Assembly: GCA_027923505.1 (NCBI GenBank)
Contig: BROI01000006.1
Location: forward strand, 310,001-374,000
Length of the DNA: 64,000 bases
Reading direction: 5' to 3'
Origin: Mayamaea pseudoterrestris
Lineage: Eukaryota
Part shown: one piece after another, positions 15,292-61,066 of the stretch
Numbering within the stretch: the first letter of the stretch is position 1
How the letters are laid out: every line of letters begins with the position of its first letter
Translations under genes and position numbers: made by a program
The notes under the pieces: generated by a model
What the model saw: only the letters and a program-made list of their open reading frames with translations
Told to the model about the DNA's origin: nothing
Database searches by the model: none

Positions 15292-15915
15292 TTGACAGGC
15301 ATTGTTTCATGATGTAGAAAGTGCAATGCAGTCAGTGCTAGCCCATCTAGTCTCCAAGTTCTGCGACAGGGACTGCAGAATTTGTGCCCCTACGCTTGTC
15401 CACAGTTGTTGGCTGCCTTAACCCACTCCAACAGCCAGAGAGGTGTAAACTGATAGCTGGCAGTTGACAAGCTTTTTTTATGATGTAGAAAGTGTAATGC
15501 AGTCATTGCTAGCCCATCTAGTCTCCAAGTTCTGCAACAGGGACTGCCAGAATTTTGTGCCCCCTGGCTTTTCCACAGTAGCTGGCTGCCATAACCCACT
15601 CCAACAGCCAGAGAGGTGTAAACTGATAGCTGGCAGTTGACAAGCTTTTTTTATGATGTAGAAAGTGTAATGCAGTCATTGCTAGCCCATCTAGTCTCCA
15701 TGTTCTGCATCAGGGACTGCCAGAATTTTGTGTCCCCAGGCTTGTCCACAGTAGCTTGCTGCTATAACCCACTCCAACAGACAGAGGTGTGTAAACTGAT
15801 AGCTGGCAGTTGACAGGCAATGCTTCATGATGTAGAAAGTGCAATGCAGTCATTGCTAGCCCATCTACTAGCCTCCAAGTTCTGTGACAGGGACTGCCAG
15901 AATTTCGTGCCCCTA
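15292..15915. repeat. Tandem satellite, unit about 171-174 bp, about 3.6 copies
   Basis: TGATGTAGAAAGTG recurs at 15310, 15481, 15654 and 15828. Confidence 0.92.
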
Positions 15916-16416: not shown

Positions 16417-19400
16417 TTTGATGTGGTGGAACCACTTGGAGGAACCTACTTGCTATATTCACGCATAACCACTGGATGACTGGCTTCCAAATTGGAACAT
16501 CTCAACCTTTGACTTTGTCAAACATCTTATCCTGATTGCCATGGCATGCTCAGAATCATGCTAGCAAGGTTGGATCATCACACAAATCCCAACTGAAACT
16601 TTGCTGTGTTTGGCACATGAAACACCCTCCTTGTTTCAGTCTCAGTCACACCCCAGCCACTGCCAGAATAGCTGCTGTTTTCAAAGTTCCAAGCCTTGGA
16701 CCTTGTGAAGCACCTTATGCGGATTGCAGTAGCAGGTTCAGATTCGTGCTGGCCAGGTTGCATCACTATACAAATTCCATCTGAAACTTTGATGTGGTGG
16801 AACCACTTGGAGAAACCTACTTGCTATATTCATGCTTGACCACTGGCTGACTGGCTTCCAAATTGGAACATCTCAACCTTTGACTTTGTCAAACATCTTA
16901 TCCTGATTGCCATGGCATGCTCAGAATCATGCTAGCAAGGTTGGATCATCACATAAATCCCAACTGAAACTTTGCTGTGTTTGGCACATGGAGCACCCTC
17001 CTTGTTTCAGTCTCAGTCACACCACAGCCACTGCCAGAATAGCTGCTGTTTTCAAAGTTCCAAGCCTTCAACCTTGTGAAACGCCTTCTGTGGATTGCAG
17101 TAGCAGGTTCAGATTCTTGCTGGCCAGGTTGCATCATTATACAAATCCCATCTGAAACTTTGATGTGGTGGAACCACTTGGAGGAACCTACTTGCTACCG
17201 TCACTTTGAAAAGTCTTTGCAACAAATCTTGTGCGGAGGTGTTCTCAATGGCTATATTTTGCAGCAATATTCTAAATAGCCTATAACATTCTTCAATACT
17301 CTGCGGGTGTTATAGAGGTTGTCCCGTTTGAATTGACTAGATGGTCCCGCCAAACACCTCGTCGCAAGCTGAGGATCGATGAGTCGTCAAAAAGACTGGC
17401 TCGCGCGCATGGTACTTAACCCACGTGGCTTACGTGGAGCTTGTTTTCGCCTTGCGGGACCCCCACCAGACATAGGCAACCATTTCACTGCTTGAAACTA
17501 CTCATTGATACATAAGTAATTGATGAATGAACATGTCCTTGGGCAATAGAGCTATATTGAATAGGTCGTGACACGACTTTTCAAAGTGACGGTATATTCA
17601 CGCTTGACCACTGGCTGACTGGCTTCCAAATTGGAACATCTCAACATTTGACTTTGTCAAACATCTTATCCTGATTGCCATGGCATGCTCAGAATCATGC
17701 TAGCAAGGTTGGATCATCACATAAATCCCAACTGAAACTTTGCTGTGTTTGGCACATGGAACACCCTCCTTGTTTCAGTCTCAGTCACACCACAGCCACT
17801 GCCAGAATAGCTGCTGTTTTCAAAGTTCCAAGCCGTCAACCTTGTGAAACACCTTCTGCGGATTGCAGTAGCAGGTTCAGAATCTTGCTTGCCAGGTTGC
17901 ATCACTATACAAATCCCATCTGAAACTTTGATGTGGTGGAACCACTTGGAGGAACCTACTTGCTATATTCACGCTTGATCACTGGCTGACTGGCTTTCAA
18001 ATTGGAACATCTCAACATTTGACTTTGTCAAACATCTTATCCTGATTGCCATGGCATGCTCAGAATCATGCTAGCAAGGTTGGATCATCACATAAATCCC
18101 AACTGAAACTTTGCTGTGTTTGTCACATGGAGCACCCTCCTTGTTTCAGTCTCAGTCACACCACAGCCACTGCCAGAATAGCTGCTGTTTTCAAAGTTCC
18201 AAGCCATCAACCTTGTGAAACACCTTCTGCGGATTGCAGTAGCAGGTTCAGAATCTTGCTTGCCAGGTTGCATCACTATACAAATTCCATCTGCGGTGTT
18301 TGGCACATGGAACACCCTCCTTGTTTCAGTCTCAGTCACACCACAGCCACTGCCAGAATAGCTGCTGTTTTCAAAGTTCCAAGCCTTGGACCTTGTCAAG
18401 CACCTTCTGCAGATTGCAGTAGCAGGTTCAGGTTCTTGCTGGCCAGGTTGCAACACTATACAAATCCCATCTGAAACTTTGATGTGGTGGAACCACTTGG
18501 AGGAACCTACTTGCTATATTCACGCTTGACCACTGGCTGACTGGCTTCCAAATTGGAACATCTCAACATTTGACTTTGTCAAACATCTTATACTGATTGC
18601 CATGGCATGCTCAGAATCATGCTAGCAAGGTTGGATCATCACATAAATCTCAACTGAAACTTTGCTGTGTTTGGCACATGGAGCACCCTCCTTGTTTCAG
18701 TCTCAGTCACACCACAGCCACTGCCAGAATAGCTGCTGTTTTCAAAGTTTCAAGCCGTCAACCTTGTGAAACACCTTCTGCAGATTGCAGTAGCAGGTTC
18801 AGAATCTTGCTTGCCAGGTTGCATCACTATACAAATCCCATCTGAAACTTTGATGTGGTGGAACCACTTGGAGAAACCTACTTGCTATATTCATGCTTGA
18901 CCACTGGCTGACTGGCTTCCAAATTGGATCATCTCAACATTTGACTTTGTCAGACATCTTATCCTGATTGCCATGGCATGCTCAGAATCATGCTAGCAAG
19001 GTTGGATCATCACATAAATCCCAACTGAAACTTTGCTGTGTTTGGCACATGGAGCACCCTCCTTGTTTCAGTCTCAGTCACACCACAGCCACTGCCAGAA
19101 TAGCTGCTGTTTTCAAAGTTCCAAGCCATCAACCTTGTGAAGCACCTTCTGGGGATTGCAGTAGCAGGTTCAGATTCTTGCTGGCCAGGTTGCATCACTA
19201 TACAAATCCCATCTGAAACTTTGATGTGGTGGAACCACTTGTAGGAACCTACTTGCTATATTCACGCTTGACCACTGGCTGACTGGCTTCCAAATTGAAA
19301 CATCTCAACCTTTGACTTTGTCAAACATCTTATCCTGATTGCCATGGCATGCTCAGAATCATGCTAGCAAGGTTGGATCATCACATAAATCTCAACTGAA

Positions 19401-20545
19401 ACTTTGCTGTGTTGGGCACATGGAACACCCTACTTGATTCAGTTGCATTCACACTACAGCCACTGCCAGAATAGTTGCTGTTTTCAAAGTTCCAAGCCTT
19501 CAACCTTGTGAAGCACCTTCTGCAGATTGCAGTAGCAGGTTCAGATTCTTGCTGGCCAGGTTGCATCACTATACAAATCCCATCTGAATTTTTGATGTGG
19601 TGGAACCACTTGGAGAAACCTACTTGCTATATTCACGCATAACCACCGACTGACTGGCTTCAAAAGTTGGAACATCTCAACCTTTGACTTTGTCAAACAT
19701 CTTATCCTGATTGCCATGGCATGCTCAGAATCATGCTAGCAAGGTTGGATCATCACACAAATCCCATCTGAAACTTTGCAGTGTTTTGCACATGGAACAC
19801 CCTACTTGTTTCAGTCTCAGTCACACCACAGCCACTGCCAGAATAGCTGCTGTTTTCAAAGTTCCAAGCCGTCAACCTTGTGAAACACCTTCTGCGGATT
19901 GCAGTAGCAGGTTCAGAATCTTGCTTGCCAGGTTGCATCATTATACAAATCCCATCTGAAACCTTGATGTGGTGGAACCACTTGGAGAAACCTACTTGCT
20001 ATATTCACGCATAACCACTGGCTGACTGGCTTCCAAATTGGAACATCTCAACATTTGACTTTGTCAAACATCTTATCCTGATTGCCATGGCATGCTCAGA
20101 ATCATGCTAGCAAGGTTGGATCATCACATAAATCCCAACTGAAACTTTGCTGTGTTTGGCACATGGAACACCCTACTTGTTTCAGTCTCAGTCACACCCC
20201 AGCCACTGCCAGAATAGCTGCTGTTTTCAAAGTTCCAAGCCTTCAACCTTGTCAAGCACCTTCTGCGGATTGCAGTAGCAGGTTCAGGTTCATGCTGGCG
20301 AGGTTGCATCATTATACAAATCCCATCTGAATTTTTGATGTGGTGGAACCACTTGGAGAAACCTACTTGCTATATTCACGCATAACCACCGACTGACTGG
20401 CTTCAAAATTGGAACATCTCAACCTTTGACTTTGTCAAACATCTTATCCTGATTGCCATGGCTTGCTCAGAATCATGCTAGCAAGGTTGGATCATCACAT
20501 AAATCCCAACTGAAACTTTGCTGTGTTTGGCACATGGAACACCCT
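16417..20545. repeat. 371-bp tandem satellite array (9 full units plus 1 partial); each unit is a dimer of related 188- and 183-bp monomers
   Basis: Unit starts at about 16417, 16788, 17159, 17927, 18478, 18849, 19220, 19591, 19963 and 20334. Unit 3 carries a MITE (+397 bp) and unit 4 an extra monomer (+180 bp). Confidence 0.97.
17198..17592. mobile_element. 395-bp MITE, Tc1/mariner-type (TA target duplication)
   Basis: Perfect 18-bp TIR CCGTCACTTTGAAAAGTC with TA on both sides. The empty site CTTGCTATATTC is visible in the other satellite units. Confidence 0.93.
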
Positions 20546-23500
20546 TTGCAGGATGCGAACGAAAACAGCGAAAATCGGGCAAGTCACACCGAATATCCGA
20601 TAGGGTGACACAGCGGCACTCGCGGCTCACCACAGCCTCACGATCGCGTGATGCGTGGCAGCGACGGCTTCGAAGCGATTCAACGAGTATATTGCTGAAA
20701 CTAGTGCGATATAGAGTAGAAACAAGCAGACTTACTAAGCTTGAAGAGTTAAGAAAGCGATTTATTCGTCTCTCGTATTGTAGCAACTGCAAGCTTGGAT
20801 TGGCCATCCAAGGACAGCTACAAGCGAAAGGTGCAACGATTTGATTTACAAGTTACAAGATTAACAGTCTTGAGACTCATTGCCTCGGCATAGAGACTTT
20901 ATCGACGAAGAGTACTATTGATTTACGAAGTAACGTGGACGCACGTTGGTTCTTGGCCCGGAAAGTTCCGCAGGTGATAGCAAGAACATTGTCACGACGA
21001 CAACGATGGCGGAAACTCGCGCGCAGAAAGACGCGGCGTTTGCGCATGTTTACGAAGAGAACGTAGGCGTTTTCCAAGATCCTCAGTTCAAGGAGTTATT
21101 CGACGAACTCGGAGTAGAATCGCTTACGCAATTGATTGAGATGGAGTACGACGATTTCGCGACGAAGTGGAACGTCACGACGACGACAACGACGACGACT
21201 GACGATGGCGACAATGTCACGCAGGAAACGAGCGAACACTCGCTAACGAAGATGAAACAACGCACGATCACGAACGCGATCGAATGGTATTTGGCGCAAG
21301 AGTCGCCGGACATCAAGACATGGTCGCAACTGACCACCGAAACGCTGGCGACGTTCGTCACAGCACGAGCGAAGGAACGAGTCCAAGCGCGCAACATTGC
21401 GAGCGTGGGCAGCGGAAGCGGAGCGAAACCTCCAGCGAAGGAAAGCGAAACGGAATCCAAGAAGGACGAATCCAAGGACTCCACGCTAACGAACGAAGGC
21501 GACGAGTCGAAGCCCGACTCGGCCGACAAGGTGCCACCGACGAGCGTGGACGTGGACACGAAGCAGTCACCGACATCCGTACTGGACCTCGGTGACGACG
21601 AAGACGACGAGAAGTATTCAGACCAATTTACGAAGTCTATCAAGTTCTCGGCGAAGGATTGTAAAGAAATGAAGCTGGATTCCTCGTGGAAACAGTGGAT
21701 TTCCGAGTTGAAAGTCATCGCTACATTGCACGACTTCCACGAAGTCTTTGACGACGATTATGACCCGAAGGAAAAGGGACCAAAGGAACAGAAGGCGTAT
21801 GCAAAGAAGAATGTGTTTGTGTACAGGATCTTTCTCACGCACTGTCGAACTCCGTCTGCATCACTCGCAGTACAGCAGTTCAAGAAGACGATGGATGGAC
21901 GCGAAGTCTACCAACGATTGCGAACGCGATACGAAGAGGGCGCTACTGCTCACATCGAGAAGGAACGCGCGCGAACGGAACTGCAGGGAATGCGGCTGAC
22001 CGAGAAGTGGTCAAGGCCGACGATCGAATTTCTCGCACTGTTCTACAAGAAAGTCATCTGGCTGCTCGAAATGGACGCAGAAGCTCTGACAGGTTTACAA
22101 CGATACGACATGCTACGCGACGCTTTCTCTGAGCACACTGGATTCAGCGCATCACTAGCAGGTTTTGACGGAATGATTGCCATCAAGAAACACATGGGGC
22201 AACACGACTCGGAAGACAATTTCGCGCAGTTGTACGCGCACTTAGAAGAGTGCTGCATCAAGTATGACAAGAAACATCCATCGACGACGAAGACTAAGCG
22301 CACAATCAATCAAGCGCAGTCTAGTGGAACGAAAGGAGGCGGCGGCGGCAATGGCGGCGCGACTCCAAGCGGCTTATCGGCGGAACGATTTGCAGCGATC
22401 ATGAAGAAACCTCACGCGAGCGTGAAGGATGAAGTCTGGTTGGAGATGAAGTTCGATCAGCGAAAGCAGTTGAAGGACAAGCGTGCGACGGCGCCCAAGA
22501 CACCCGAAAACGGATGGCGACCGCGCAACCAACGAGGCACGGCTACGACGCAGACGCAAGTCAACGCGGCGCATCAAGAGCGTCACGCGACGGAATCTGT
22601 AGCGAACGATCACGCAAGCGTTCCTGGCACGATTAATATTCAGCCAGGCAATAGTGGAATGTCAGTCCAAACGGCTGCACGATCGGTTCTGCAAGCGAAC
22701 AATGCGAGTACTACAACTCAGCAAGTGACAGGATCGTTGACGACTGATAACACCGGACGAGGTACATTCAGCTTCAACATGCATCGTCGTATGCGCGTCA
22801 ATCGCGCACACTACGAGCGGATCAACGAAGGCGCGCTCATCGACAGCGGCGCGAACGGAGGCTTATGCGGAGGAGACATGCTCGTCGTTTCGGAAACGAA
22901 CGCCGAGGTGGATGTGACTGGTATTGACGATCATATTGTCCCAGCTCTCAAGATTGGCACTGCAGCTGGACTGGCAAAGACCCTTAGTGGCGAAACCATT
23001 CTGCTTTTGTGTCACCAGTATGCTTTAAAGCGAGACGGACCGACGATTCATTGCCCGAATCAATTGCGCGCAATGGGACATCGCGTCGACGATATTCCGA
23101 CCATGTTTGGCGGAACGCAACGAATTACGACGAACATTGGAGGCTACGTTTTGCCATTGGCAATTCGCGATGGCCTGGTGTACTTGGACGTGACGAAACC
23201 CACGTTCGATGATTTGGATAAGTATCCGACTGTCATCATGACGTCGGACGTGCCGTGGGACCCGACTGTTTACGATGTCGAGCACGCGCACGACGATTTC
23301 GACGAACGAGATCACGATTATGGATCTTTCGACGAACGATTCGATGATGACGGTATCACGCACCGCAATCGTCACACGCCGACACGCACTGGCGACGAAC
23401 TTGACGTACTGATCAATCGGTGCGTGCGACACGCTCAGTTTTCACGCGTTAATTTGCGGAAGCTAAGAAGCAAGGAACCGGACTATAATGCTCTTCGGCC

Positions 23501-26500
23501 GTACCTCGGATGGGTCCCGACTGAGCGAGTTCAACAGACTTTACGTCACACGGAAGCATGGTATCATCTCAGCGAACATCCGCGATTACCATTTCGACAC
23601 CTCACGAAATCACGATTTCCGGCCGCGAACGTTCAGCGGTTGCGCGAACTATTCGCCACGGACACGATACACTCTGACACGCCAGCTTTGGATGATGGAA
23701 TTCTAGGGCATGGGGGAGCTACTAAGATGCAGCTCTTTGTTGGACGAGAAAGTTTTTACACGCGCGGCTACCCGATGAAGTCGGAGAGCGAAATGTCAAA
23801 CGCGTTAGAGGATTTTATCCGCGAAGTGGGCGCTCCTAACGGACTGCTCAGCGACAATGCCAAGTCGGAGACTGGCAAGGCTGTGAGGGATCTCTGTCGG
23901 ATGTACAATATTCCTCAAGTGACCACAGAACCGGGTCATCCAGAACAAAATCCATGCGAACGTCACACGTCGCACATTAAGCCAATGATGGAGAACCTCC
24001 AACGAGATTCGGGTTCGCCAGGCCATTGCTGGGTTTTGCTGATTAAATTCGTAATCATGATTCTGAACGTCCTCGCGACGAAATCGCTGGGATGGCGCAC
24101 TCCAACGGAAGTTGCGTTCGGAAATTTGCCGGATATTTCGCCTTTGTTACATTTCAAGTGGTGGGAACCGGTCACGTTTGAGGCGCAGGGGAGTTTTCCC
24201 TCGGCGGTACGATCTGGCAACGGCCGATTCGTGGGCATCGCAGAGAATAGCGGTCCGCACATGACTTTTCTCGTTCTGACGGACGATACGCTTCAGGCGA
24301 TTCCGCGCTCCAACGTGGTCTCGCGCAGCTACTTGTTACCACGAGAGTTGCCTTCCTTCCCTGAGTCTGGAGGGGAGATTTCTGAAGAAGCTACACGCGC
24401 AAGCGAACGAAATTTTGAAACTCCAGATCTCGCGACAGGACGCTACCATAGCACGAATGCGACAGAAAGTAGTCACGACAACTACGAAGGAAACGACGAC
24501 GAAACGATTCCGATGGCGAACCACGCCAACGTACCAGCGAAGTTCTTCAGAAGGGCTGAGCAAGAATCAGGGAATAAATGCCCTCTGTTCTCTCCAAGCA
24601 AACTCATCGGACGCACGTTCGTAAGGGAACACGAAAACGGTCAGAAAATGCGAGCGACTGTATGCGAATATATCGAAGTACGCGATAACGAGCTACTCGA
24701 AACGACGAAAGGTTTCTTGATCCAGATGGGAGAAGAGCCAGCGAAAGACTTAATAAGTTACAACGAACTGTCGGATTTAATCGAACGACAGATGGACGAA
24801 GATATACGAAACGATCCGGCGACTCAGTGGGTATTCACGAAGGTAATCGGACACGAGCTTAATTTGAAACCGAACGATCCGACATACAAAGGAAGTTCAA
24901 GTAACGTTCTCGTCGAGTGGACTGACGGAACAACGACGTGGGAGCCTCTCGCGATCATGAAGAAGGACGATCCGATAACGATCGCAGAGTATGGACTCAA
25001 GCACGGCTTACTCGACAAGCCAGGATGGAAGCAGCTGGAACATTACACTCGGAAGCGAAAGAAGTTTCGACAGATGGTGACAGCAGCGAAACGAAAATCG
25101 AAAGCAAACGGCGTACGCTACAAATTCGGCGTAAGGTTGCCGCGCAATTATAAAGATGCGAAAGCTCTCGACGAGATCAACGGCAACACGCTGTGGACGG
25201 ACGCGATTCGAACGGAATTAAATCAGATAAATGATTACGACACGTTCGCAGATCAAGGAGTCGGTAAGGTTATGCCGGCGCCGTGGAAACGAATAAACGT
25301 GCACATGATATTCGATGTCAAGCACGATTTGCGACGGAAAGCACGACTCGTCGCAGGAGGACATATGACAGAGCCGCCGAAGGATTCAGTTTACTCGGGC
25401 GTTGTGTCATTGCGAAGTCTACGAATGGTAGCGATGTTAGCGGAACTCAACGGTCTGGAACTGTGGGCAGCTGACGTCGGCAACGCATACTTGGAAGCGA
25501 AAACGAAAGAGAAGGTTTATATCGTGGCAGGTCCGGAGTTCGGGGAGCTCGAGGGTCACACGCTCACGATCGTGAAGGCATTATACGGTCTTCGCACGTC
25601 AGGCGCACGCTGGCACGAGCACTTTGCAGACACGCTCCGCGACATTGGCTTCACGCCGTGTATCGCAGAACCGGACGTGTGGATGCGCGATAAAGGCACG
25701 CACTACGAATACGTTTGTGTGTATGTCGACGATTTAGCGATAGCGATGAAGAATCCGAAGGAACTAACGGATCTTTTAATTGAGAACTACAACTACAAGT
25801 TGAAGGGCGTCGGTCCATTGGCATATCATTTGGGCGCAGACGTTTGGCGAGACGACGACGGCGTACTCTGCTTCGGAGCGAAGAAGTACGTCACAAGACT
25901 ACTAGCGAACTACAAAGAAATGTTCGGCGAGGAACCGCGACCGCAGACAAGTCCACTACGCGACGGCGATCATCCGGAACTCGACGAAACGAAAGAACTT
26001 GACGACGACGGAATTGCGAAGTATCAATCGATCATTGGTGCGTTGCAATGGGCAGTAAGTTTATGTCGATTCGACATTCACTGTGCTGTCATGACTATGG
26101 GGAGATTCCGAGCTGCGCCACGAGCGGGGCACTTGGAACGGTTGAAGCATATTTGCGGATACTTACGAAGATACCCGGATGGAGCGATTCGATTCAACGT
26201 TTCGATTCCAACGGACGAGCGATACGCGACAGTTGACAAGATGGATTGGGATTACAGTGTGTACGGCAAGATCTGCGAAGAGCTTCCGTGGAACATGCCC
26301 ACGCCGCGCGGCAAGGCGGTGCGAATGTCAACGTTCGAAGATGCGAACCTGTACCACGATTACACGACGGGACGGGCAGCGATGGGCATGCTACACATGT
26401 TGAATGGAACAGTCGTCGATTGGTTTTCGAAACGCCAAGCGACGGTCGAGACGGCGACGTACGGCTCGGAGTTTGTAGCAGCGAGAGTGAGCACGGAGCA

Positions 26501-27128
26501 GATCATGGATCTTCGCTTCACGCTACGCATGTTGGGAGTTCCGCTCGACGGACCTTCATGGATGTTTGGAGACAACAAGTCGGTAACGCAAAGCAGCAAC
26601 CTACCGCACTCTAGTCTGACGAAGCGACACAATGCACTGGCATTTCACCGTGTACGCGAAGCGATTGCGGCGGGAATTATTAATTTCAACCACATCATGG
26701 GAACGACAAACCCGGCGGATGTACTTACCAAGTTTCTTCCACGGGCTACGGCAAGCAAGCACTTAAAGAACCTGCTCTTCAAGGAATCTAACTATTAGGT
26801 ATGACTTGAGGGGAGTTGCAGGATGCGAACGAAAACAGCGAAAATCGGGCAAGTCACACCGAATGTCCGATAGGGTGACACAGCGGCACTCGCGGCTCAC
26901 CACAGCCTCACGATCGCGTGATGCGTGGCAGCGACGGCTTCGAAGCGATTCAACAAGCATATTGCTGAAACTAGTGCGATATAGAGTAGAAACAAGCAGA
27001 CTTACTAAGCTTGAAGAGTTAAGAAAGCGATTTATTCGTCTCTCGTATTGTAGCAACTGCAAGCTTGGATTGGCCATCCAAGGACAGCTACAAGCGAAAG
27101 GTGCAACGATTTGATTTACAAGTTACAA
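20546..27128 (+). mobile_element. Full-length Ty1/copia (CoDi-like) LTR retrotransposon; LTRs 20546-20858 and 26816-27128
   Basis: 313-bp direct repeats differing at 3 positions, PBS at 20859-20872, PPT GAGGGGAG before the 3' LTR, and an intact gag-pol ORF. No target-site duplication. Confidence 0.96.
21006..26798 (+). CDS. Copia Gag-Pol polyprotein (Gag-PR-IN-chromo-like-RT-RNaseH), single ORF
   Basis: Protease LIDSGA; integrase ATDT..LLSDNA..QNPCER; RT KARLVAGGH, DVGNAYL, KALYGL, YVDD; RNaseH EDAN..GSEF..GDNKS..NPADVLTK. The IN-before-RT order identifies copia. Confidence 0.96.
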   Translation: MAETRAQKDAAFAHVYEENVGVFQDPQFKELFDELGVESLTQLIEMEYDDFATKWNVTTTTTTTTDDGDNVTQETSEHSLTKMKQRTITNAIEWYLAQESPDIKTWSQLTTETLATFVTARAKERVQARNIASVGSGSGAKPPAKESETESKKDESKDSTLTNEGDESKPDSADKVPPTSVDVDTKQSPTSVLDLGDDEDDEKYSDQFTKSIKFSAKDCKEMKLDSSWKQWISELKVIATLHDFHEVFDDDYDPKEKGPKEQKAYAKKNVFVYRIFLTHCRTPSASLAVQQFKKTMDGREVYQRLRTRYEEGATAHIEKERARTELQGMRLTEKWSRPTIEFLALFYKKVIWLLEMDAEALTGLQRYDMLRDAFSEHTGFSASLAGFDGMIAIKKHMGQHDSEDNFAQLYAHLEECCIKYDKKHPSTTKTKRTINQAQSSGTKGGGGGNGGATPSGLSAERFAAIMKKPHASVKDEVWLEMKFDQRKQLKDKRATAPKTPENGWRPRNQRGTATTQTQVNAAHQERHATESVANDHASVPGTINIQPGNSGMSVQTAARSVLQANNASTTTQQVTGSLTTDNTGRGTFSFNMHRRMRVNRAHYERINEGALIDSGANGGLCGGDMLVVSETNAEVDVTGIDDHIVPALKIGTAAGLAKTLSGETILLLCHQYALKRDGPTIHCPNQLRAMGHRVDDIPTMFGGTQRITTNIGGYVLPLAIRDGLVYLDVTKPTFDDLDKYPTVIMTSDVPWDPTVYDVEHAHDDFDERDHDYGSFDERFDDDGITHRNRHTPTRTGDELDVLINRCVRHAQFSRVNLRKLRSKEPDYNALRPYLGWVPTERVQQTLRHTEAWYHLSEHPRLPFRHLTKSRFPAANVQRLRELFATDTIHSDTPALDDGILGHGGATKMQLFVGRESFYTRGYPMKSESEMSNALEDFIREVGAPNGLLSDNAKSETGKAVRDLCRMYNIPQVTTEPGHPEQNPCERHTSHIKPMMENLQRDSGSPGHCWVLLIKFVIMILNVLATKSLGWRTPTEVAFGNLPDISPLLHFKWWEPVTFEAQGSFPSAVRSGNGRFVGIAENSGPHMTFLVLTDDTLQAIPRSNVVSRSYLLPRELPSFPESGGEISEEATRASERNFETPDLATGRYHSTNATESSHDNYEGNDDETIPMANHANVPAKFFRRAEQESGNKCPLFSPSKLIGRTFVREHENGQKMRATVCEYIEVRDNELLETTKGFLIQMGEEPAKDLISYNELSDLIERQMDEDIRNDPATQWVFTKVIGHELNLKPNDPTYKGSSSNVLVEWTDGTTTWEPLAIMKKDDPITIAEYGLKHGLLDKPGWKQLEHYTRKRKKFRQMVTAAKRKSKANGVRYKFGVRLPRNYKDAKALDEINGNTLWTDAIRTELNQINDYDTFADQGVGKVMPAPWKRINVHMIFDVKHDLRRKARLVAGGHMTEPPKDSVYSGVVSLRSLRMVAMLAELNGLELWAADVGNAYLEAKTKEKVYIVAGPEFGELEGHTLTIVKALYGLRTSGARWHEHFADTLRDIGFTPCIAEPDVWMRDKGTHYEYVCVYVDDLAIAMKNPKELTDLLIENYNYKLKGVGPLAYHLGADVWRDDDGVLCFGAKKYVTRLLANYKEMFGEEPRPQTSPLRDGDHPELDETKELDDDGIAKYQSIIGALQWAVSLCRFDIHCAVMTMGRFRAAPRAGHLERLKHICGYLRRYPDGAIRFNVSIPTDERYATVDKMDWDYSVYGKICEELPWNMPTPRGKAVRMSTFEDANLYHDYTTGRAAMGMLHMLNGTVVDWFSKRQATVETATYGSEFVAARVSTEQIMDLRFTLRMLGVPLDGPSWMFGDNKSVTQSSNLPHSSLTKRHNALAFHRVREAIAAGIINFNHIMGTTNPADVLTKFLPRATASKHLKNLLFKESNY

Positions 27129-27172
27129 TAGCAGGTATGCAACAGAAAGTAGTATCACTATGCCGTTAAAAG

Positions 27173-27254
27173 TAGCGCACCTCGGAATCGAACCAAGGAT
27201 AACCGGCTATATCACCTCTAAACACGCTGCTACTTTTCCGTCTGCTAGTGTACT
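27173..27254 (-). ncRNA. tRNA-like Pol III unit inside the TRIM 3' LTR
   Basis: Acceptor AGTACAC/GTGCGCT, A-box-like TAGCAGACGG, variable hairpin, T-arm CTTGG-TTCGATT-CCGAG (B box) and downstream TTTT. The anticodon stem does not pair. Confidence 0.7.
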
Positions 27255-27642
27255 ATATGCTGCATACAAGGCACCATGCACTATGACAAGTAAAGGTATC
27301 GCTCTGGTTGCTGTTTTTCGTGTGCAACCTGCTACTCCCCTAGCTTTGCGCGTCATAGTGCTAACTCGTCTTCCGTTTCAGCTGGCATTTTCGTCTCGCG
27401 GGGGAATGTCACTTTTCAGTTTTTCCTGCGGCGTTTCGGGCTCGGCGCATCTTTGTGCACTCCCCAGGGTCCGCGACTCCCCATCGTTCGTTCGTGACAA
27501 ACCCGTGCAACCAGTGAATTTTTGCTTTTTCTTCGCTTGATTCGATCGCAACTCGAACCAGCAGCCTCAGTCCAGATCTCTCGATAGGGACGCTACCATA
27601 GCAGGTATGCAACAGAAAGTAGTATCACTATGCCGTTAAAAG

Positions 27643-27724
27643 TAGCGCACCTCGGAATCGAACCAAGGATAACCGGCTATATCACCTCTAAACACGCTGC
27701 TACTTTTCCGTCTGCTAGTGTACT
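27643..27724 (-). ncRNA. tRNA-like Pol III unit inside the TRIM 5' LTR
   Basis: Identical copy of 27173-27254. Confidence 0.7.
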
Positions 27725-27804
27725 ATATGCTGCATACAAGGCACCATGCACTATGACAAGTAAAGGTATCGCTCTGGTTGCTGTTTTTCGTGTGCAACCT
27801 GCTA

Positions 27805-29824
27805 CGAGTACGAGACGTTTCAAGATCTTGGTCCGAGTTCCATCACAGCACCACCAACTGGTTACCAAAAGATCCGAGTCCATTTTGTGTACGATGTCAA
27901 GCATGATTTGCGATACAAGGCACGTCTTGTTGCAGGCGGCCACTTGACGAAGGACAACGACGATGCCTACTCCAGTGTTATCTCATTGAAGGCAATGCGT
28001 CTAGCTCTCGTCATTGGAGAAGCAAACGGCAAGAAGTGCATGGTCGGTGACATTGGGAATGCTTATCTCGAAGCGTTCACTAAGGAGAAGGTATACTTCG
28101 TTGGAGGCCCCGAGTTCGGTGAGCGCGAAGGACACATCCTGGTCATCGCCAAGGCTTTGTACGGATTGCGAACGAGCGGAGCACGATTTCACGAACGCTT
28201 AGCCGACGCCCTACTTGCGGAAGGATGGAAGCCGTCCTATTGCGATTCCGATCTGTGGATCAAGGACGCCGGCGACAGCTACGACTACCTCTGTGTGTGG
28301 GTCGACGATCTGTTGAATATTTCAGACGATCCAGCAGCGTTCTTCAAGATGCTAGAGGAGAAGTACAAGTTTACGCTCAAAGGTGTTGGACATCCCGAGT
28401 ATCATCTCGGCGGTGACTTTGGACGAGACCCTGACGGAACTCTTTACTGGTCGGCCAAGACCTACGTTGCGAAACTCTTGGCGCAGTACGAGCGTTTGTT
28501 TGAAGGTCCTCCGAAGAAGTACTCATCACCGATCGACAAAGACGACCATCCAGAACTTGACCAAAGCGAGCTACTGAACGACCAAGAGAAGAAGATTTAC
28601 CAGTCTCTAGTCGGAGCACTTCAGTGGGCGATTACTTTGGGACGATTTGACATTGCCGTTGCAGTTGTGAGTCTGTCGCGATTCCGTGTGGAGCCGCGCA
28701 AGGGACACCTGCAGCGGGTGAAGCGAGTCTGTGGATATTTGCGAGAGTTACCGGACGCAGCAATCCGTTTCCGTACGAAGTGGCCAGCCAACGAGGAGCA
28801 CTTCGGCACCATGGAGGAACAAGATTGGGAGCGCAGCGTTTACGGGAAGGACGGAGTTGATGAGATGTTGGACGTCTACCCACCGCCAAAGGGTGTGACC
28901 GTGCGAACATCAACTTTCGAGGATGCGTGTCTCATGCATTGCATGGTGACAGGCAAGTCATTGGAAGGAGTTTTGTCATTTGTCAACCAGACGCCTGTCG
29001 ACTGGCATTGCAAACTCCAGGCTACAGTCGAGACTGCGACCTTCGGATCGGAATTCGGCGTAGCAAAGAGCGGAACGGATATCAGCATTTCTCTACGCGC
29101 GTCGCTCATGGCTATGGGCGTACCATTGGAGAAGTCTGCCTGGATGTACGGAGAAAACCAAGCAGTGATTACGCAATCTACAATCCCGAGTTTGACGTTG
29201 TCCAAGCGACACAATGCGTTGGCCTACCATTGTGTTCGTTGGGCAGTTGCTGCGGGGATTATCAAGTTTGTAAAGATTGACGGAAAGGAGAACATTGCGG
29301 ACGTACTGACGAAGTACCTGCCGTACTGTGATGCGATGCCATTGCTCAAGCCAGTATTGTTTTGGCGCGGCGATACATCGTATGCGATTGTGAAGGACAA
29401 GAATGCGGCTACGACGAGCAGCGAACCCGAGGGGAGTGACGAGTCGCAGAGCGGCGAAGTCAAGAGCCCGAACCCTAATTAGCTTGTGTCGAGTCCGCAG
29501 CTGTCGTATGTGACATGTGAATGAAGAAAGTGCGCAACCGCCGTGTGGATGCGTTGTATGAATGGAACGACCAGTTACGACTGATGTAATGTGATTGAAA
29601 GAAACGGATTGATCAGATGATCTTCCGAGTGGTCGATGTAGCGATGTAGCGATAAGCTCACAATATATAGAACTACTAGTTTGCGACGAGAGTGCAGTCG
29701 TATTCGTGTAGTGGCGAGCGCAAGACTATTCGACGAGCCATCTCCATCAAGAGCTGTACAGACCGTGGCCAAGGACCCTGTATCGGAGCTTTTTGGAGGT
29801 AAGACGTTGACTGCGAAATCGTCA
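27805..29824 (+). mobile_element. 5'-truncated copia: RT-RNaseH (open frame to 29482) plus 3' LTR 29437-29824
   Basis: EYETFQDLG..YDVKHDLRYKARLVAGGH, WVDD and ENIADVLTK. PPT GAGGGGAG is followed by an LTR with TGACGA...TCGTCA termini. Confidence 0.92.
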
Positions 29825-30377: not shown

Positions 30378-32092
30378 CTTACCAGGTCCTTCTTGGTTGC
30401 CGCTCATGTTTAGTCAAGATGAATGAATCGCTTTCGAGAAGATGGGCCAACACCACTTTGTAGATGGATCAATTTTGTGGAGGTGCGATGCGTGAGCAAC
30501 TGAAGGGACGGACTCGTGCCAAGAAATTTTGCCTTCTGTTGAATTCTCTTGATTTGCAAATCACAACAGTTTGTAGCTATGTAAATCAGTCGTGTCTGTC
30601 AGTTGGCTTTGGACTTTTAATTTTTTTGATCAGTTTGGATTGTGCACTTGCATTCATATAAAAAAGCATGAGTGCGAGTTATATTTCAATCTTGTCTACC
30701 AGTACCAGTCAATACCTTGATGTGCATTTGTATTACATAAGTCAACACGAGCTCACTTGCTACAAACAGCATTGATGCATTCCCACTGGCGGCTTTGTAA
30801 GGAAGCGTCAGTCTTGGATTAATGGTCGAAGCATGCTCCACTTGCATGTCTGCACGCGTGCGTGTGTCAACATATCTGTTGTTTACCTCCAACGGTAGGC
30901 ACTTCATGGCAATCCAAGCCCAAGGGGTTGTCACAGGCCAACGCCAAACTGCAGGCCACCAAGCCTGGAGAGTGTGTCTCAATTGACCAACTGGTGTCTT
31001 AAATGCCATCCTCATAGCCCAGCTCAGAGGAACCCCCACCAAGTGGCGCTACCAGTGCTCTACAGTATTTGTGGACCAATTCAGCCACTTCTCCTACGTC
31101 CACCTCCAGAAAGCCTTTTCAGCAGAAGAGACACTGGAGGCCAAGGCCGCGTTTGAAGTGCATGCTAGTTCAGTGGGAGTGAAAGTCCAACATTATAGGC
31201 CGACAATGGCTTCTTTGCTGACAGTCAATGGCAGCCACCTGCGCAAGGAGCGGCCAGGTACTCACCCTCTGCAGGGTCCACGCCCACTTCCAGAACGGCA
31301 TCACTGAGCAACACATAAGGGAGCTGCAGGATCAAGCCTGCACCATGATGATACACACCACCAGAAGGTGGCCCTCCGCCTACAATGCAAACCTTTGGCT
31401 GTACGCCCTGCGAATGGCTAATGAGTCCAAAGATATCACCCTTGCCCCAAGGCTACAGGTTCATTGCACTGCCCTCCCACATCACACTGGCAAGACAAGT
31501 GTCATTTCTTCACAACCAACAAGGGAGAGTCACCCCCAGAGGCACTACATCCGGACAACAAAAGCCTGCTCAGTCGGGCCTCCCAAGTTTCCTTCCCCAA
31601 GGCAAACAACCTCCCACCCAAGGCAGATGTTGCCAATCCCAAGGCTATACAACCGTGCCAGCGGATTCAGCTCTGCTGGACACTCCACCCACCGGTGCAA
31701 CCCCACTGACTGCTCCACCAACTGAAGATCCTGCCAATAATTCAACAAGGGTGGCAGCTAGCCCACCTCTGCAGCACTCCCAACACCAGCGCAAGCTGAC
31801 CAAGGAAGGTTGACAGTATTGATCACAACTCAGAGGAGGCCGTAACGTCACAGAGATGATCCAGGCCATGCGGACGGAGCTGCTCAAACTTCATCCAAAT
31901 CCATCTTACTACAAATATCTAGCCAAAGCCATGCGCATGAACTGCAGGACGCGCAAGGGAGCCTGGTGGCCTATGAGGCGCTTGCCATGCCTCAAGAGTA
32001 CCATTCCCCTCAGGATCCACCAAAGACACCACCATGTACTGGCATCAAACCATGCAATCCAAGGACCAAGTACAGTTCCTACAGGCCGCTCA

Positions 32093-39369: not shown

Positions 39370-41470
<2,101 letters not shown>

Positions 41471-43074
41471 AGCTGGCTCAATCTTGATTTCATGTACCGC
41501 AGTGACCAGATGAGCTATTGGGTTAATTATATGGGGCTTATGCGCATGATATCACAAACTTATCCACCTATGTTCATGAGTTGCTTGTGAAGCCAGCCAG
41601 CATATGCTGGATCACTTTTTCAGCTGTATCATCATAAATATGCTTGTATGGACGCAAAACGTCACTTGATGTGGACTTTTCGAAACCTTGCGGTGGCATT
41701 TCCTTTTGTCACTGATACAGGGTGTGCGTTTTTTGACTTTGCGCTCAAAATATTGCATATGGGCCCCCGGACGGAGTATAGCGAGATTCATGCAAATGCT
41801 TTCGAGTTATGTTCTAACAGCTACCCCCCAGCAATGGATTACAAGAAGCGTTTCCTTCTGGATGGGGGCTTTATAATCAGTCTTGTCGTTTTTCTTGCTG
41901 GTACCAATGTACGTTGCATCTACAATCATGTGGCTCAAAATGAATACTTCCTCACTCTCTCTCTCTTCCATTTTACAGGTGGTTGCTGCTAAAGCTGCTT
42001 TGGAGGCAGTGACCAATATCCTATCAGATGTTTGCGATGTTAGCAATTGGTTCAACCATGGTGGAATTAGCTGCGTCAGGAAGTGGGTCCGGAACGCAGA
42101 CGACGATGTGTGATTTCACGCGTGTAACGCTCTTCTTAATATTGCCTCCAAAGGATCGAAGGTGCATCCACAAGCATTGGTCAATTCCACTGATAAACCT
42201 AAGAATTTGTTCATTGAGAGGCTCAAGGCAGGGGATGCCGCGGACGATGCAGGTAAACTTATACACATGTACTCAAGGTCTTTAAAAGGATTCTACCAAG
42301 TCCACCGGATGCCTCAAGTATTCTCGGCTGAACGCCAAGCAAAGGTAATAGCTGCTGTCATTGCTGTTAGGAATCAAGACCCCACAGTCATGTAGTGGGT
42401 GACTGAACTTCAGCAGTCATTTCATTGGTAGTGTACTTTAAATATAAACTCGTTTACTTACTGAGCAATAGTTAACTATTTATCGGAGCCGTCGAGCCTC
42501 CACCATCTTATTGCGTTGCGGCACTGATGAGCAAAGCCGGTGGCTGTATCATGCATAATGAGCCAATTATGGCCTTGCTTATGAGTGAGGGATGCTAAAG
42601 TCCAAATGCAAGGGTCCGTCGCGCCATTCATTTCGAGACCTCGAGTCATAAACATCTTGTAGACCATTGCATTAGTGGTTCAAATTTTTTAAACAACGTG
42701 CGACAGGCGCCAACGTTCGTGTGTGCATAATATTTCTTCTCCTTCTCATCAAGCACAATTCTCTCGATGCCACATTCACCTCAACTCTATCATGCAGCTC
42801 CCACAAGGCGTCAAGTTTCTGAGGGAAGTGTCTTCGACCAAAAATCATCTCTCGCCACGCAAAGAAAACCATTGGCGGCACCGCATTCTTTGCGCGTTTG
42901 CTTGACGATGGTGGTGGTGTAACTGCAACCTTCTCTGCCTCAATTAATTGCTGCTGTTTATAAATTGATGCAACCTGCCTTTCGCATCTCATGCAAATGC
43001 TTTTGCAAGGCTTTTGAAGCTCTGCTGGAACAGCCATGAGCCAATGCTCGAGGCAATCTCCTTCAATGGTTTGA

Positions 43075-43211
43075 AGCAAGCAGACTTACTAAGCTTGAAG
43101 AGTTAAGAAAGCAAATTATTTGTCTCTCGTATTGTAGCAACTTCAAGCTTGGATTGGCCATCCAAGGACAGCTACAAGCAAAAGGTGCACAATTTGATTT
43201 ACAAGTTACAA
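43075..43211 (+). mobile_element. 3' half of an older LTR of the 20546-27128 copia family
   Basis: Matches 20722-20858 with several CpG>TpG/CpA changes; ends AGTTACAA. Confidence 0.9.
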
Positions 43212-43540
43212 GCCTTGTAGAACTTTCCAAAATAAGGGGGCTGGATCCCTTCCATGTGAGAAGGTGGGAGATCATGGCCCAGCGCTTGCGCGCCTGCATG
43301 ACATTCCTGTGCACTGCCGGCCAGTCGCTGTCAAAATAGTTCAATGGGCGGCCCAAGTACACAAATGTTTATCCTGGAGGAGGGCTCCACTGCGCTACCG
43401 CGTTGTGAGCTCTGCGACATGTTTGTTCCATATTCTGCTCTGAAGACCAGCCACCAAACCTGCTGTCCGGAAACAGCAGTGGCACGCAGCAGAGGATACC
43501 AGGCGACTCACCAACCCACATCACATCTAATTCACACCTT
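43212..43540. mobile_element. Non-LTR (LINE-like) retrotransposon fragments in opposite orientations
   Basis: Minus strand: YLGRPL..DSDWPAV.RN..ARKRW..FYKA. Plus strand: ILEEG..LPRCELCDMFVP..HQT.C. Confidence 0.55.
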
Positions 43541-45223: not shown

Positions 45224-45762
45224 ACAGCTCCACTGCTACATTCCATGCCAGCAATTGAGGCTTTGATGGATGCCCAGAATCGCCTTGGGTGGCATCTCAG
45301 CACTCCAACTTTGCCGGGCTGCGACAAACTCATGCAGCCTGGAAACCCCCTTACCCATCAATGCAAGACAAGTAAATTGGTTGGTGCTTTAACCTCTATG
45401 GCAACGGCGTTCAGGTGGTGCCCATGCACTTGCGTGCTTACAAAGTTTGTGGTGTCCTTTTCTGGGCTCTTGATTGATTGGAGGGACTCAAAGCATGGCA
45501 CTTTCATACAGCTCCACTGGTACATTCCATGCCAGCAATCGAGGCTTTGATGGATGCCCAGAATTGCCTTGGGTGGCATCTTGGCACTCCAACTTTGCCG
45601 GGCTGCAACTACTCATGCAGCCTGGATACCCCCGTACCCATCAATGCAAGACAAGTATATTGGTCAGTGCTTTGACCTCTATGGCAACGGCGTTCAGGTG
45701 GTGCTCATGCACTTGCTTGATTACAAAGTTTGCAGTGTCTTTTTCTGAGCTCTTGATTGATC
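45224..45762. repeat. Tandem repeat, 284-bp unit, about 1.9 copies
   Basis: ACAGCTCCACTG(C/G)TACATTCCATGCCAGCAAT at 45224 and 45508. Confidence 0.9.
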
Positions 45763-60982: not shown

Positions 60983-61066
60983 GCAAGTATGCCCGAGTGG
61001 TCTAAGGGGGTGCACTTAAGATGCACTATTCGTCAGAATGCGAGGGTTCAAACCCCTCTGCTTGCA
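60983..61066 (+). tRNA. tRNA-Leu(TAA)
   Basis: Acceptor GCAAGTA/TGCTTGC, anticodon arm GTGCA-CTTAAGA-TGCAC, long variable arm, T arm GAGGG-TTCAAAC-CCCTC and downstream T-runs. Confidence 0.95.

Follow-up and report, generated by a model that had tools for sequence, protein, structure and literature searches.

A 676-bp mini element with a tRNA-like unit in each LTR: a candidate Helenus-type TRIM from an apparent diatom

TRIMs that carry tRNA-derived sequence in their LTRs are a kind of element that has already been described, under the name Helenus (= TRIMp3), by Kojima 2024 (PMC10886601). According to the sections of that paper drawn on here, Helenus elements occur in fungi, six animal phyla and Selaginella, measure 311–1263 bp, have target site duplications (TSDs) of 4 or 5 bp, and contain a box A of the form TRGCY...YGG and a box B of the form GGTTC. 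Most of them are unlikely to encode working tRNAs, the fungal families have been connected with Copia partners, and the Pol III promoter function was not validated in that study. The same sections describe Ajax as a 5S-bearing TRIM from a nemertean, and Cassandra as a plant TRIM, restricted to land plants, with a 5S rRNA-derived Pol III unit in its LTRs that has been shown experimentally to be transcribed by Pol III. A preliminary description of the locus treated here had named Ajax as a tRNA-bearing element of plants; by these sections it had swapped the two names, Helenus being the tRNA type.

For diatoms, the part of Rastogi et al. 2018 (PMC5859163) considered here lists 27 ‘putative TRIM/LARD’ pieces (7,291 bp) from the automatic annotation of Phaeodactylum tricornutum, as well as 13 ‘putative SINE’ pieces from Phaeodactylum. 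As a category, TRIM-like elements are therefore no novelty in diatoms. The text of Kojima 2024 (PMC10886601) contains none of the words diatom, stramenopile and protist, and names of diatoms or stramenopiles are absent from the portion of its supplement text that was searched. No report of tRNA-bearing TRIMs from diatoms came up in our literature search, and Filloramo 2021 (PMC8147415) contains no occurrence of TRIM, SINE, LARD, non-autonomous or solo LTR.

Here, we describe a mini element from a 64-kb stretch of DNA, the whole of which is called the window below. We regard it, with moderate confidence, as a Helenus-type TRIM of 676 bp that is non-coding and lies on the minus strand. It is probably a Helenus-type TRIM in a host group for which the literature searched describes no Helenus and, as it stands, the copy is a well-formed example rather than a demonstrated active element. 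The parts of the mini element are the following.

27129–27334, minus strand: 3′ LTR in element sense, 206 nt; its outer end adjoins the last base (27128) of the 3′ LTR of the neighbouring Copia element, Copia1
27172–27254, minus strand: tRNA-like unit of the 3′ LTR (ARAGORN, -ps98), with an A-box-like motif at 27238–27247, a B box at 27184–27194 and TTTT at 27168–27171
27335–27598, minus strand: non-coding interior (core), 264 nt, with no Pfam match for the 3 ORFs that overlap it
27335–27341, minus strand: polypurine tract (PPT)-like AGGGGAG, directly before the 3′ LTR; homologous to the PPT/LTR junction of Copia1 at 26808–26839
27587–27598, minus strand: primer binding site (PBS)-like TGGTAGCGTCCC, directly 3′ of the 5′ LTR
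27599–27804, minus strand: 5′ LTR in element sense, 206 nt, identical to 27129–27334
27642–27724, minus strand: tRNA-like unit of the 5′ LTR (ARAGORN, -ps98), with an A-box-like motif at 27708–27717, a B box at 27654–27664 and TTTT at 27638–27641

The element was delimited from a direct repeat of 212 nt (27124–27335 versus 27594–27805) whose copies differ only at 27127/27597. Since the left 212-nt copy begins with five bases of the Copia1 LTR, the LTR proper was set at 206 nt, over which the two copies, 27129–27334 and 27599–27804, are identical. The LTR ends, TAGCAGGT...ACCTGCTA, form an 8-bp inverted repeat, and the LTR termini are TA...TA, not TG...CA. With 206 + 264 + 206 = 676 bp in total and the minus strand as the sense strand, the element falls within the size range by which TRIMs are recognized (a whole element of about 1 kb or less with short direct LTRs). 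None of the three stop-to-stop ORFs overlapping it matched Pfam, and blastx against Copia1 gave only short, non-significant matches inside it. Sequence comparison thus agrees with the preliminary description of two identical 206-bp LTRs with 8-bp inverted termini around a 264-bp non-coding interior. The TGG-starting PBS and the purine tract of that description are also in place, both at the positions expected on the minus strand: read in that direction, the PBS-like sequence, which starts with TGG, adjoins the end of the 5′ LTR directly, and the PPT-like sequence stands immediately 5′ of the 3′ LTR.

A link to a retrotransposon lineage is found at this PPT/LTR junction, where the mini element resembles its left neighbour.

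20546–27128, plus strand: Copia1, an intact Ty1/copia element, with a 5′ LTR at 20546–20858, an open frame at 20934–26798 (1954 aa) and a 3′ LTR at 26816–27128
24421–24473, plus strand: 53-nt stretch in the Copia1 reading frame, 47/53 alike to 27570–27623 and antisense to the mini element

The LTRs of Copia1 are 99.0% alike over 313 nt, and its frame contains rve (integrase) and RVT_2 domains as detected with Pfam. The mini-element junction TAGGGGAGTAGCAGGTTGCACACGAAAAACAG matches Copia1 26808–26839 at 23 of 32 positions without gaps; allowing one gap gives more matches, and a weaker likeness extends over about 20 nt upstream of the PPT. Outside the mini element, neither strand of the window contained another junction-like site with up to 11 mismatches. 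Judged by this alignment, the PPT and the first approximately 24 nt of the mini LTR are homologous to the same junction in Copia1. The position of the match at the structurally equivalent PPT/LTR junction identifies the minus strand as the element sense. A Copia1-like lineage is, on this sequence likeness, probably the source of the reverse transcriptase and integrase for the mini element. The PBS regions of the two elements differ, Copia1 carrying GATTAACAG... after its LTR versus TGGTAGCGTCCC in the mini element.

The same junction bears on whether the structure is a retroelement at all. It could be read as 1.44 copies of a 470-bp tandem duplication comparable to the nearby satellites, since arrays with periods of 173, 371 and 283 bp lie in the same window, a 470-bp periodicity would also give the closed 500-nt contig found in sequencing runs (see below), and a TSD is lacking. 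A match at the equivalent PPT/LTR junction disfavours an arbitrary tandem duplication, however: the repeat is bounded precisely by a PBS starting with TGG and by a PPT|LTR junction that is homologous to the Copia1 one, and it has 8-bp inverted ends, whereas a slipped duplication would have arbitrary borders. We therefore consider this reading extremely unlikely.

A second likeness to Copia1, the 53-nt stretch listed above, corresponds to the final 25 nt of the mini LTR together with the PBS and the next 16 nt. It is situated in the low-complexity linker between the integrase and the reverse transcriptase (RT) of Copia1, and was found again in Copia1-type contigs of four sequencing runs (X1, X2, X4 and X9). 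The stretch may be what is left of a related mini element that long ago inserted in antisense into an ancestor of Copia1. Capture of strong-stop DNA together with its tRNA was considered for this match and rejected, since the 16 nt past the PBS form no T arm.

Within each LTR, ARAGORN detected an 83-nt class-II cloverleaf, directly followed by TTTT, at 98% of its default threshold; the default run missed the unit, which was reported in both LTRs from -ps98 downward. All five cloverleaf arms are at canonical spacing. The acceptor stem forms six of seven pairs, the D stem three of four with GG in its loop, the T arm five of five and the long variable arm 4 bp; the anticodon stem, said to be unpaired in the preliminary description, forms four of five pairs, two of them G-U, and has a loop of 8 nt. 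With its mispairs and an anticodon loop of this size, the unit is unlikely to function as a tRNA. Box B reads GGTTCGATTCC and fits GGTTC, and box A reads TAGCA..CGG, in which TRGC and YGG fit and the Y position is A. Apart from the anticodon stem, the tRNA-like module proposed for each LTR is thus present, with its cloverleaf, A- and B-box-like motifs and T run.

To calibrate the cloverleaf, ARAGORN was applied to 150 dinucleotide-preserving shuffles of the whole 64-kb window. Matches numbered 0 at ps100, 1 at 99, 2 at 98 and 10 at 95, giving a chance rate at ps98 of about 0.013 per 64 kb, or about 4e-5 per 206-nt LTR. The B-box pattern GGTTCGANNCC has two matches in the window, both in the LTRs, against 0.30 expected. 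The TTTT after the unit is the only run of four or more T on the sense strand (470 non-redundant bases), on which such runs are not significantly depleted (1 seen, 0.70 expected) and runs of four or more A number 7 versus 2.2 expected (P 0.003). We conclude that the tRNA-likeness of the unit is beyond chance. Because of the ARAGORN calibration, the B box confined to the LTRs and the position of the T run, we derive the unit from a tRNA gene or from an element of tRNA origin.

Other tests were negative. The Rfam covariance model for tRNA (RF00005) gave no match at E<=10 on either 1.1 kb or 111 nt of sequence, an outcome that the preliminary description had listed among those refuting it; the remaining Rfam matches were sub-threshold and at chance level (sno_ncR3 with 16.4 bits against a gathering threshold of 88, mir-728 and RMST_1). 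A plain RNA fold of the unit (90 nt) was no better than that of shuffled sequences (z 0.17), and the free-energy fold prefers a 9-bp stem, AAAAGUAGC/GCUACUUUU, a rival to the acceptor stem, over the cloverleaf. These results would suit a genuine TRIM that lacks a Pol III unit and is driven by an ordinary Pol II promoter, its tRNA resemblance being accidental or functionless, as would the imperfect box A and the changed boxes of a diverged contig described below. Set against this, there were only two ps98 matches in the 150 shuffled windows, the five arms are canonically spaced, and the TTTT follows the discriminator directly as the only such run in 470 nt; we consider an accidental resemblance quite unlikely. 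The unit was also considered as a read-through copy of the primer tRNA, which was rejected because such a copy would be located antisense beside the PBS, not in sense orientation within the LTR. The sole find of ARAGORN at its default setting was a class-II tRNA-Leu(TAA) gene at 60983–61066, with a T run after it; compared by eye, this gene and the LTR unit are alike only in the generic class-II layout.

The Helenus-type reading is supported by the LTR pair with its inverted ends and the positions of PBS and PPT, the PPT/LTR junction match, the cloverleaf at ps98, the B box restricted to the LTRs, the position of the T run, the intact Copia1 element and the layout common to published Helenus consensus sequences. 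It is weakened by the lack of a TSD, the single copy in the window, the missing Rfam signal, the z of 0.17, the TA...TA ends, the deviating box A and a PBS unlike that of Copia1. Under the Helenus-type reading, each LTR would consist of a U3-like part of about 80 nt, the 83-nt module as a decayed class-II tRNA-like sequence, the four-T run and a 39-nt tail, and the core would start with a PBS of the tRNA-3′-end type and end with the PPT. The module may go back to the insertion of a tRNA gene, or of a SINE derived from a tRNA, into an ancestral LTR. It would recruit TFIIIC and Pol III to produce an RNA of about 85 nt ending at the T run; alternatively, Pol III might read through this terminator and provide a full-length template, with the module serving as R. 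The enzymes that copy the element in trans, now or formerly, would be the reverse transcriptase and integrase of the Copia1 lineage.

The 3′ end of the module is complementary to the PBS of the element. By hand pairing, the 3′ end of the unit plus CCA pairs with this PBS at 12 of 13 positions, one of the pairs being G-U and the remaining position a mismatch (unit end ...GAGGUGCGCUACCA versus PBS UGGUAGCGUCCCU). Ten of the positions lie outside CCA, and the chance of at least 9 of these 10 pairing is about 1e-3 (analytic, with a pairing probability of 6/16). A self-priming TRIM could be imagined, in which the Pol III unit RNA, trimmed and provided with CCA, would anneal to the PBS of its own element and only the enzymes would come from the Copia partner; we regard this as very unlikely. 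More ordinarily, a ...CGCUA acceptor end may simply be common to the PBS, the LTR unit and a cellular primer tRNA. An end of this type is typical of the initiator tRNA-type primers of Ty1/copia elements, and the PBS may match an initiator-tRNA-type end (...CGCUACCA). A cellular tRNA fitting the PBS TGGTAGCGTCCC would end in ...GGGACGCUACCA.

Compared with Helenus as presented in the sections of Kojima 2024 referred to above, the mini element has the same plan of two short LTRs with a PBS and a PPT bounding a short non-coding core, and its 676 bp lie within the published range of 311–1263 bp. It also shares a tRNA-like module that has box A- and box B-like motifs but probably does not work as a tRNA, and a probable link to a Copia partner, as in fungal Helenus. 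In the portion of Data S1 (PMC10886601) that was compared, the Helenus consensus likewise has a T run after the tRNA-like part and a core running from TGGTA... to ...GGGGAG. The differences, as far as these sections go, are that the mini element has no TSD versus 4 or 5 bp in Helenus, that its LTRs have TA...TA ends whereas the Helenus consensus in Data S1 has TG...CA, and that its box A begins with TAGCA instead of TRGCY. The link of the mini element to its partner consists of the PPT and the LTR start, whereas Helenus elements share the PBS or internal parts, not the LTRs, with theirs. Complementarity between the 3′ end of the unit and the PBS was looked for in Helenus and not found (PMC10886601), and the host of the mini element appears to be a diatom. 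In the supplement text of that paper (PMC10886601), as far as it was searched, the 14-nt T-arm word of the mini LTR is absent, and the generic 11-nt B box occurs 15 times.

Two other systems are less close. [quoted passage not shown] The TRIM/LARD pieces of Phaeodactylum are likewise short, non-autonomous elements of the LTR type, from a diatom genome in which Copia-type elements dominate, but they come from automatic annotation only, and a tRNA-like LTR is not described for them in the part of PMC5859163 considered here.

If a family of such elements exists, tRNA-bearing TRIMs (Helenus/TRIMp3) would reach beyond fungi, animals and one plant to an apparent diatom, which would support a repeated origin of the tRNA/TRIM hybrid. 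It would also be a rare case in which the lineage of the autonomous partner can be named from a common PPT and LTR-terminus sequence. Units of this kind may inflate or confuse the annotation of tRNA pseudogenes and SINEs, and would place TFIIIC/Pol III-type boxes inside transposon-rich and probably silenced regions.

The full mini element is present once in the 64-kb window, which contains no second copy of the 264-nt core. Exact and degenerate T-arm patterns had no match in metagenome and viral contigs, collections that may lack the host organism. Eight sequencing-run rows from two studies, one of which rows may be the source of the assembly, contain most of the sampled words of 27050–27900, and four runs (X1, X2, X4 and X9) were compared with the locus at the contig level. 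A 500-nt contig (470 + 30, a closed LTR-plus-core cycle) with 0–1 differences was present in three DNA runs of one study, and these contigs show that the mini element exists outside this assembly. In X1, X2 and X4 the depth of the mini-element contig, which is not a copy number, is similar to that of the flanks, and gives no pointer to a high-copy family. Run X9 (a small share) yielded Copia1-type parts only and carries no evidence that the mini element is absent.

Further LTR copies are hinted at by two contigs of low depth. A 151-nt contig of X1 (depth 2.5) matches 27598–27724 with 14 differences in 127 nt and has a different upstream flank. It contains two changes in the B box and one at the base of the acceptor stem, and has lost the TTTT, so that this single diverged copy shows no sparing of the boxes or the T run. 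Extra conservation of the A and B boxes, the absence of which the preliminary description had likewise listed as refuting it, is thus not seen in the sole diverged copy (X1, depth 2.5). In X4, a 68-nt contig (depth 3.6) joins the end of the mini LTR (27804) to palindromic sequence that is absent from the window. Either a minority of cells carries the element at a second site, or the contig is a chimeric-read artefact; palindromic flanks are typical of chimeric reads. Both contigs, with depths below 5 and from two of the four runs, may be errors or stem from another organism. Taken as sequence, they hint at a dispersed family of mini elements.

The ends of the mini element do not have the appearance of a simple insertion. 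On the left it directly adjoins 27128, the final base of the Copia1 3′ LTR, in tail-to-tail orientation, and its right end meets a second Copia element.

27805–29482, plus strand: Copia2, the 5′-truncated RT/RNase H part of a second Copia element, forming the right flank of the mini element

The RT of Copia2 has a best match of 82% in a protein search. Bacillariophyta was the commonest phylum in the Atlas, on 1 and 5 members of known phylum, a weak lead to a diatom host. No TSD of 3–6 bp was found when the LTR borders were shifted by 0–5 nt, where 5 bp would be expected of a Copia-dependent element, the flanks reading ...GTTACAA| on the left and |CGAGTAC... on the right, so that the TSDs of 4–6 bp looked for in the preliminary description are absent at this locus. 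Copia1 has no TSD either, its 5′ LTR adjoining the 371-bp satellite array and its 3′ LTR the mini element. The characterization of the element as ‘young, mobile’ finds no backing in a single window copy that lacks a TSD, has both ends at Copia junctions and has no relatives in the metagenome and viral contigs. A simple insertion of the mini element into Copia2 was considered and rejected, as the upstream part of Copia2 is nowhere in the window. Copia2-related contigs in X1 and X2 have a different sequence leftwards from 27804; this upstream sequence had no match in the window, and tblastn for the missing 5′ part returned 3′ Copia parts only. Across 27128/27129 and 27804/27805 there was no bridging contig with 31 letters on each side among the matches listed, and both junctions therefore rest on the assembly. 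We conclude from the lack of a TSD and the end-to-end position with the Copia1 3′ LTR and the truncated Copia2 that the locus has been rearranged. Either recombination between element copies that swapped flanks or end-joining of complete linear cDNAs at a chromosome break fits this arrangement; capture of cDNA at chromosome breaks is known in yeast.

An alternative reading is that the mini element is a one-off relic, in which a larger LTR element, autonomous or LARD-like, lost its inside in place and the 676 bp never transposed as such. The single window copy without a TSD, the nest of truncated Copia pieces and satellites around it, and the resemblance of about 20 nt before the PPT to the 3′ end of Copia1 would all be in keeping with such a loss. 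A deletion would, however, have to leave a 264-nt core that keeps exactly the PBS and the PPT at its ends and no coding trace by blastx against Copia1 or in the Pfam search of the three ORFs. Moreover, the window contains no larger element with the same LTRs, and the low-depth contigs hint at further LTR copies. We consider the origin in place unlikely, and retain the Helenus-type TRIM as the preferred reading.

The window as a whole looks repeat-rich, with nested transposons. A second PBS candidate at 31043–31054 (2 mismatches) was dismissed as a chance match, as it has no LTR beside it. Tandem arrays are located at 15292–15913 (period 173), 16417–20545 (period 371, approximately 11 copies in two sub-blocks) and 45224–45761 (283 bp). 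A further 3′ fragment of a Copia polyprotein, 48% identical to Copia1, is found at 40106–40942, and 43073–43212 holds 140 nt of a Copia1-type LTR (94%).
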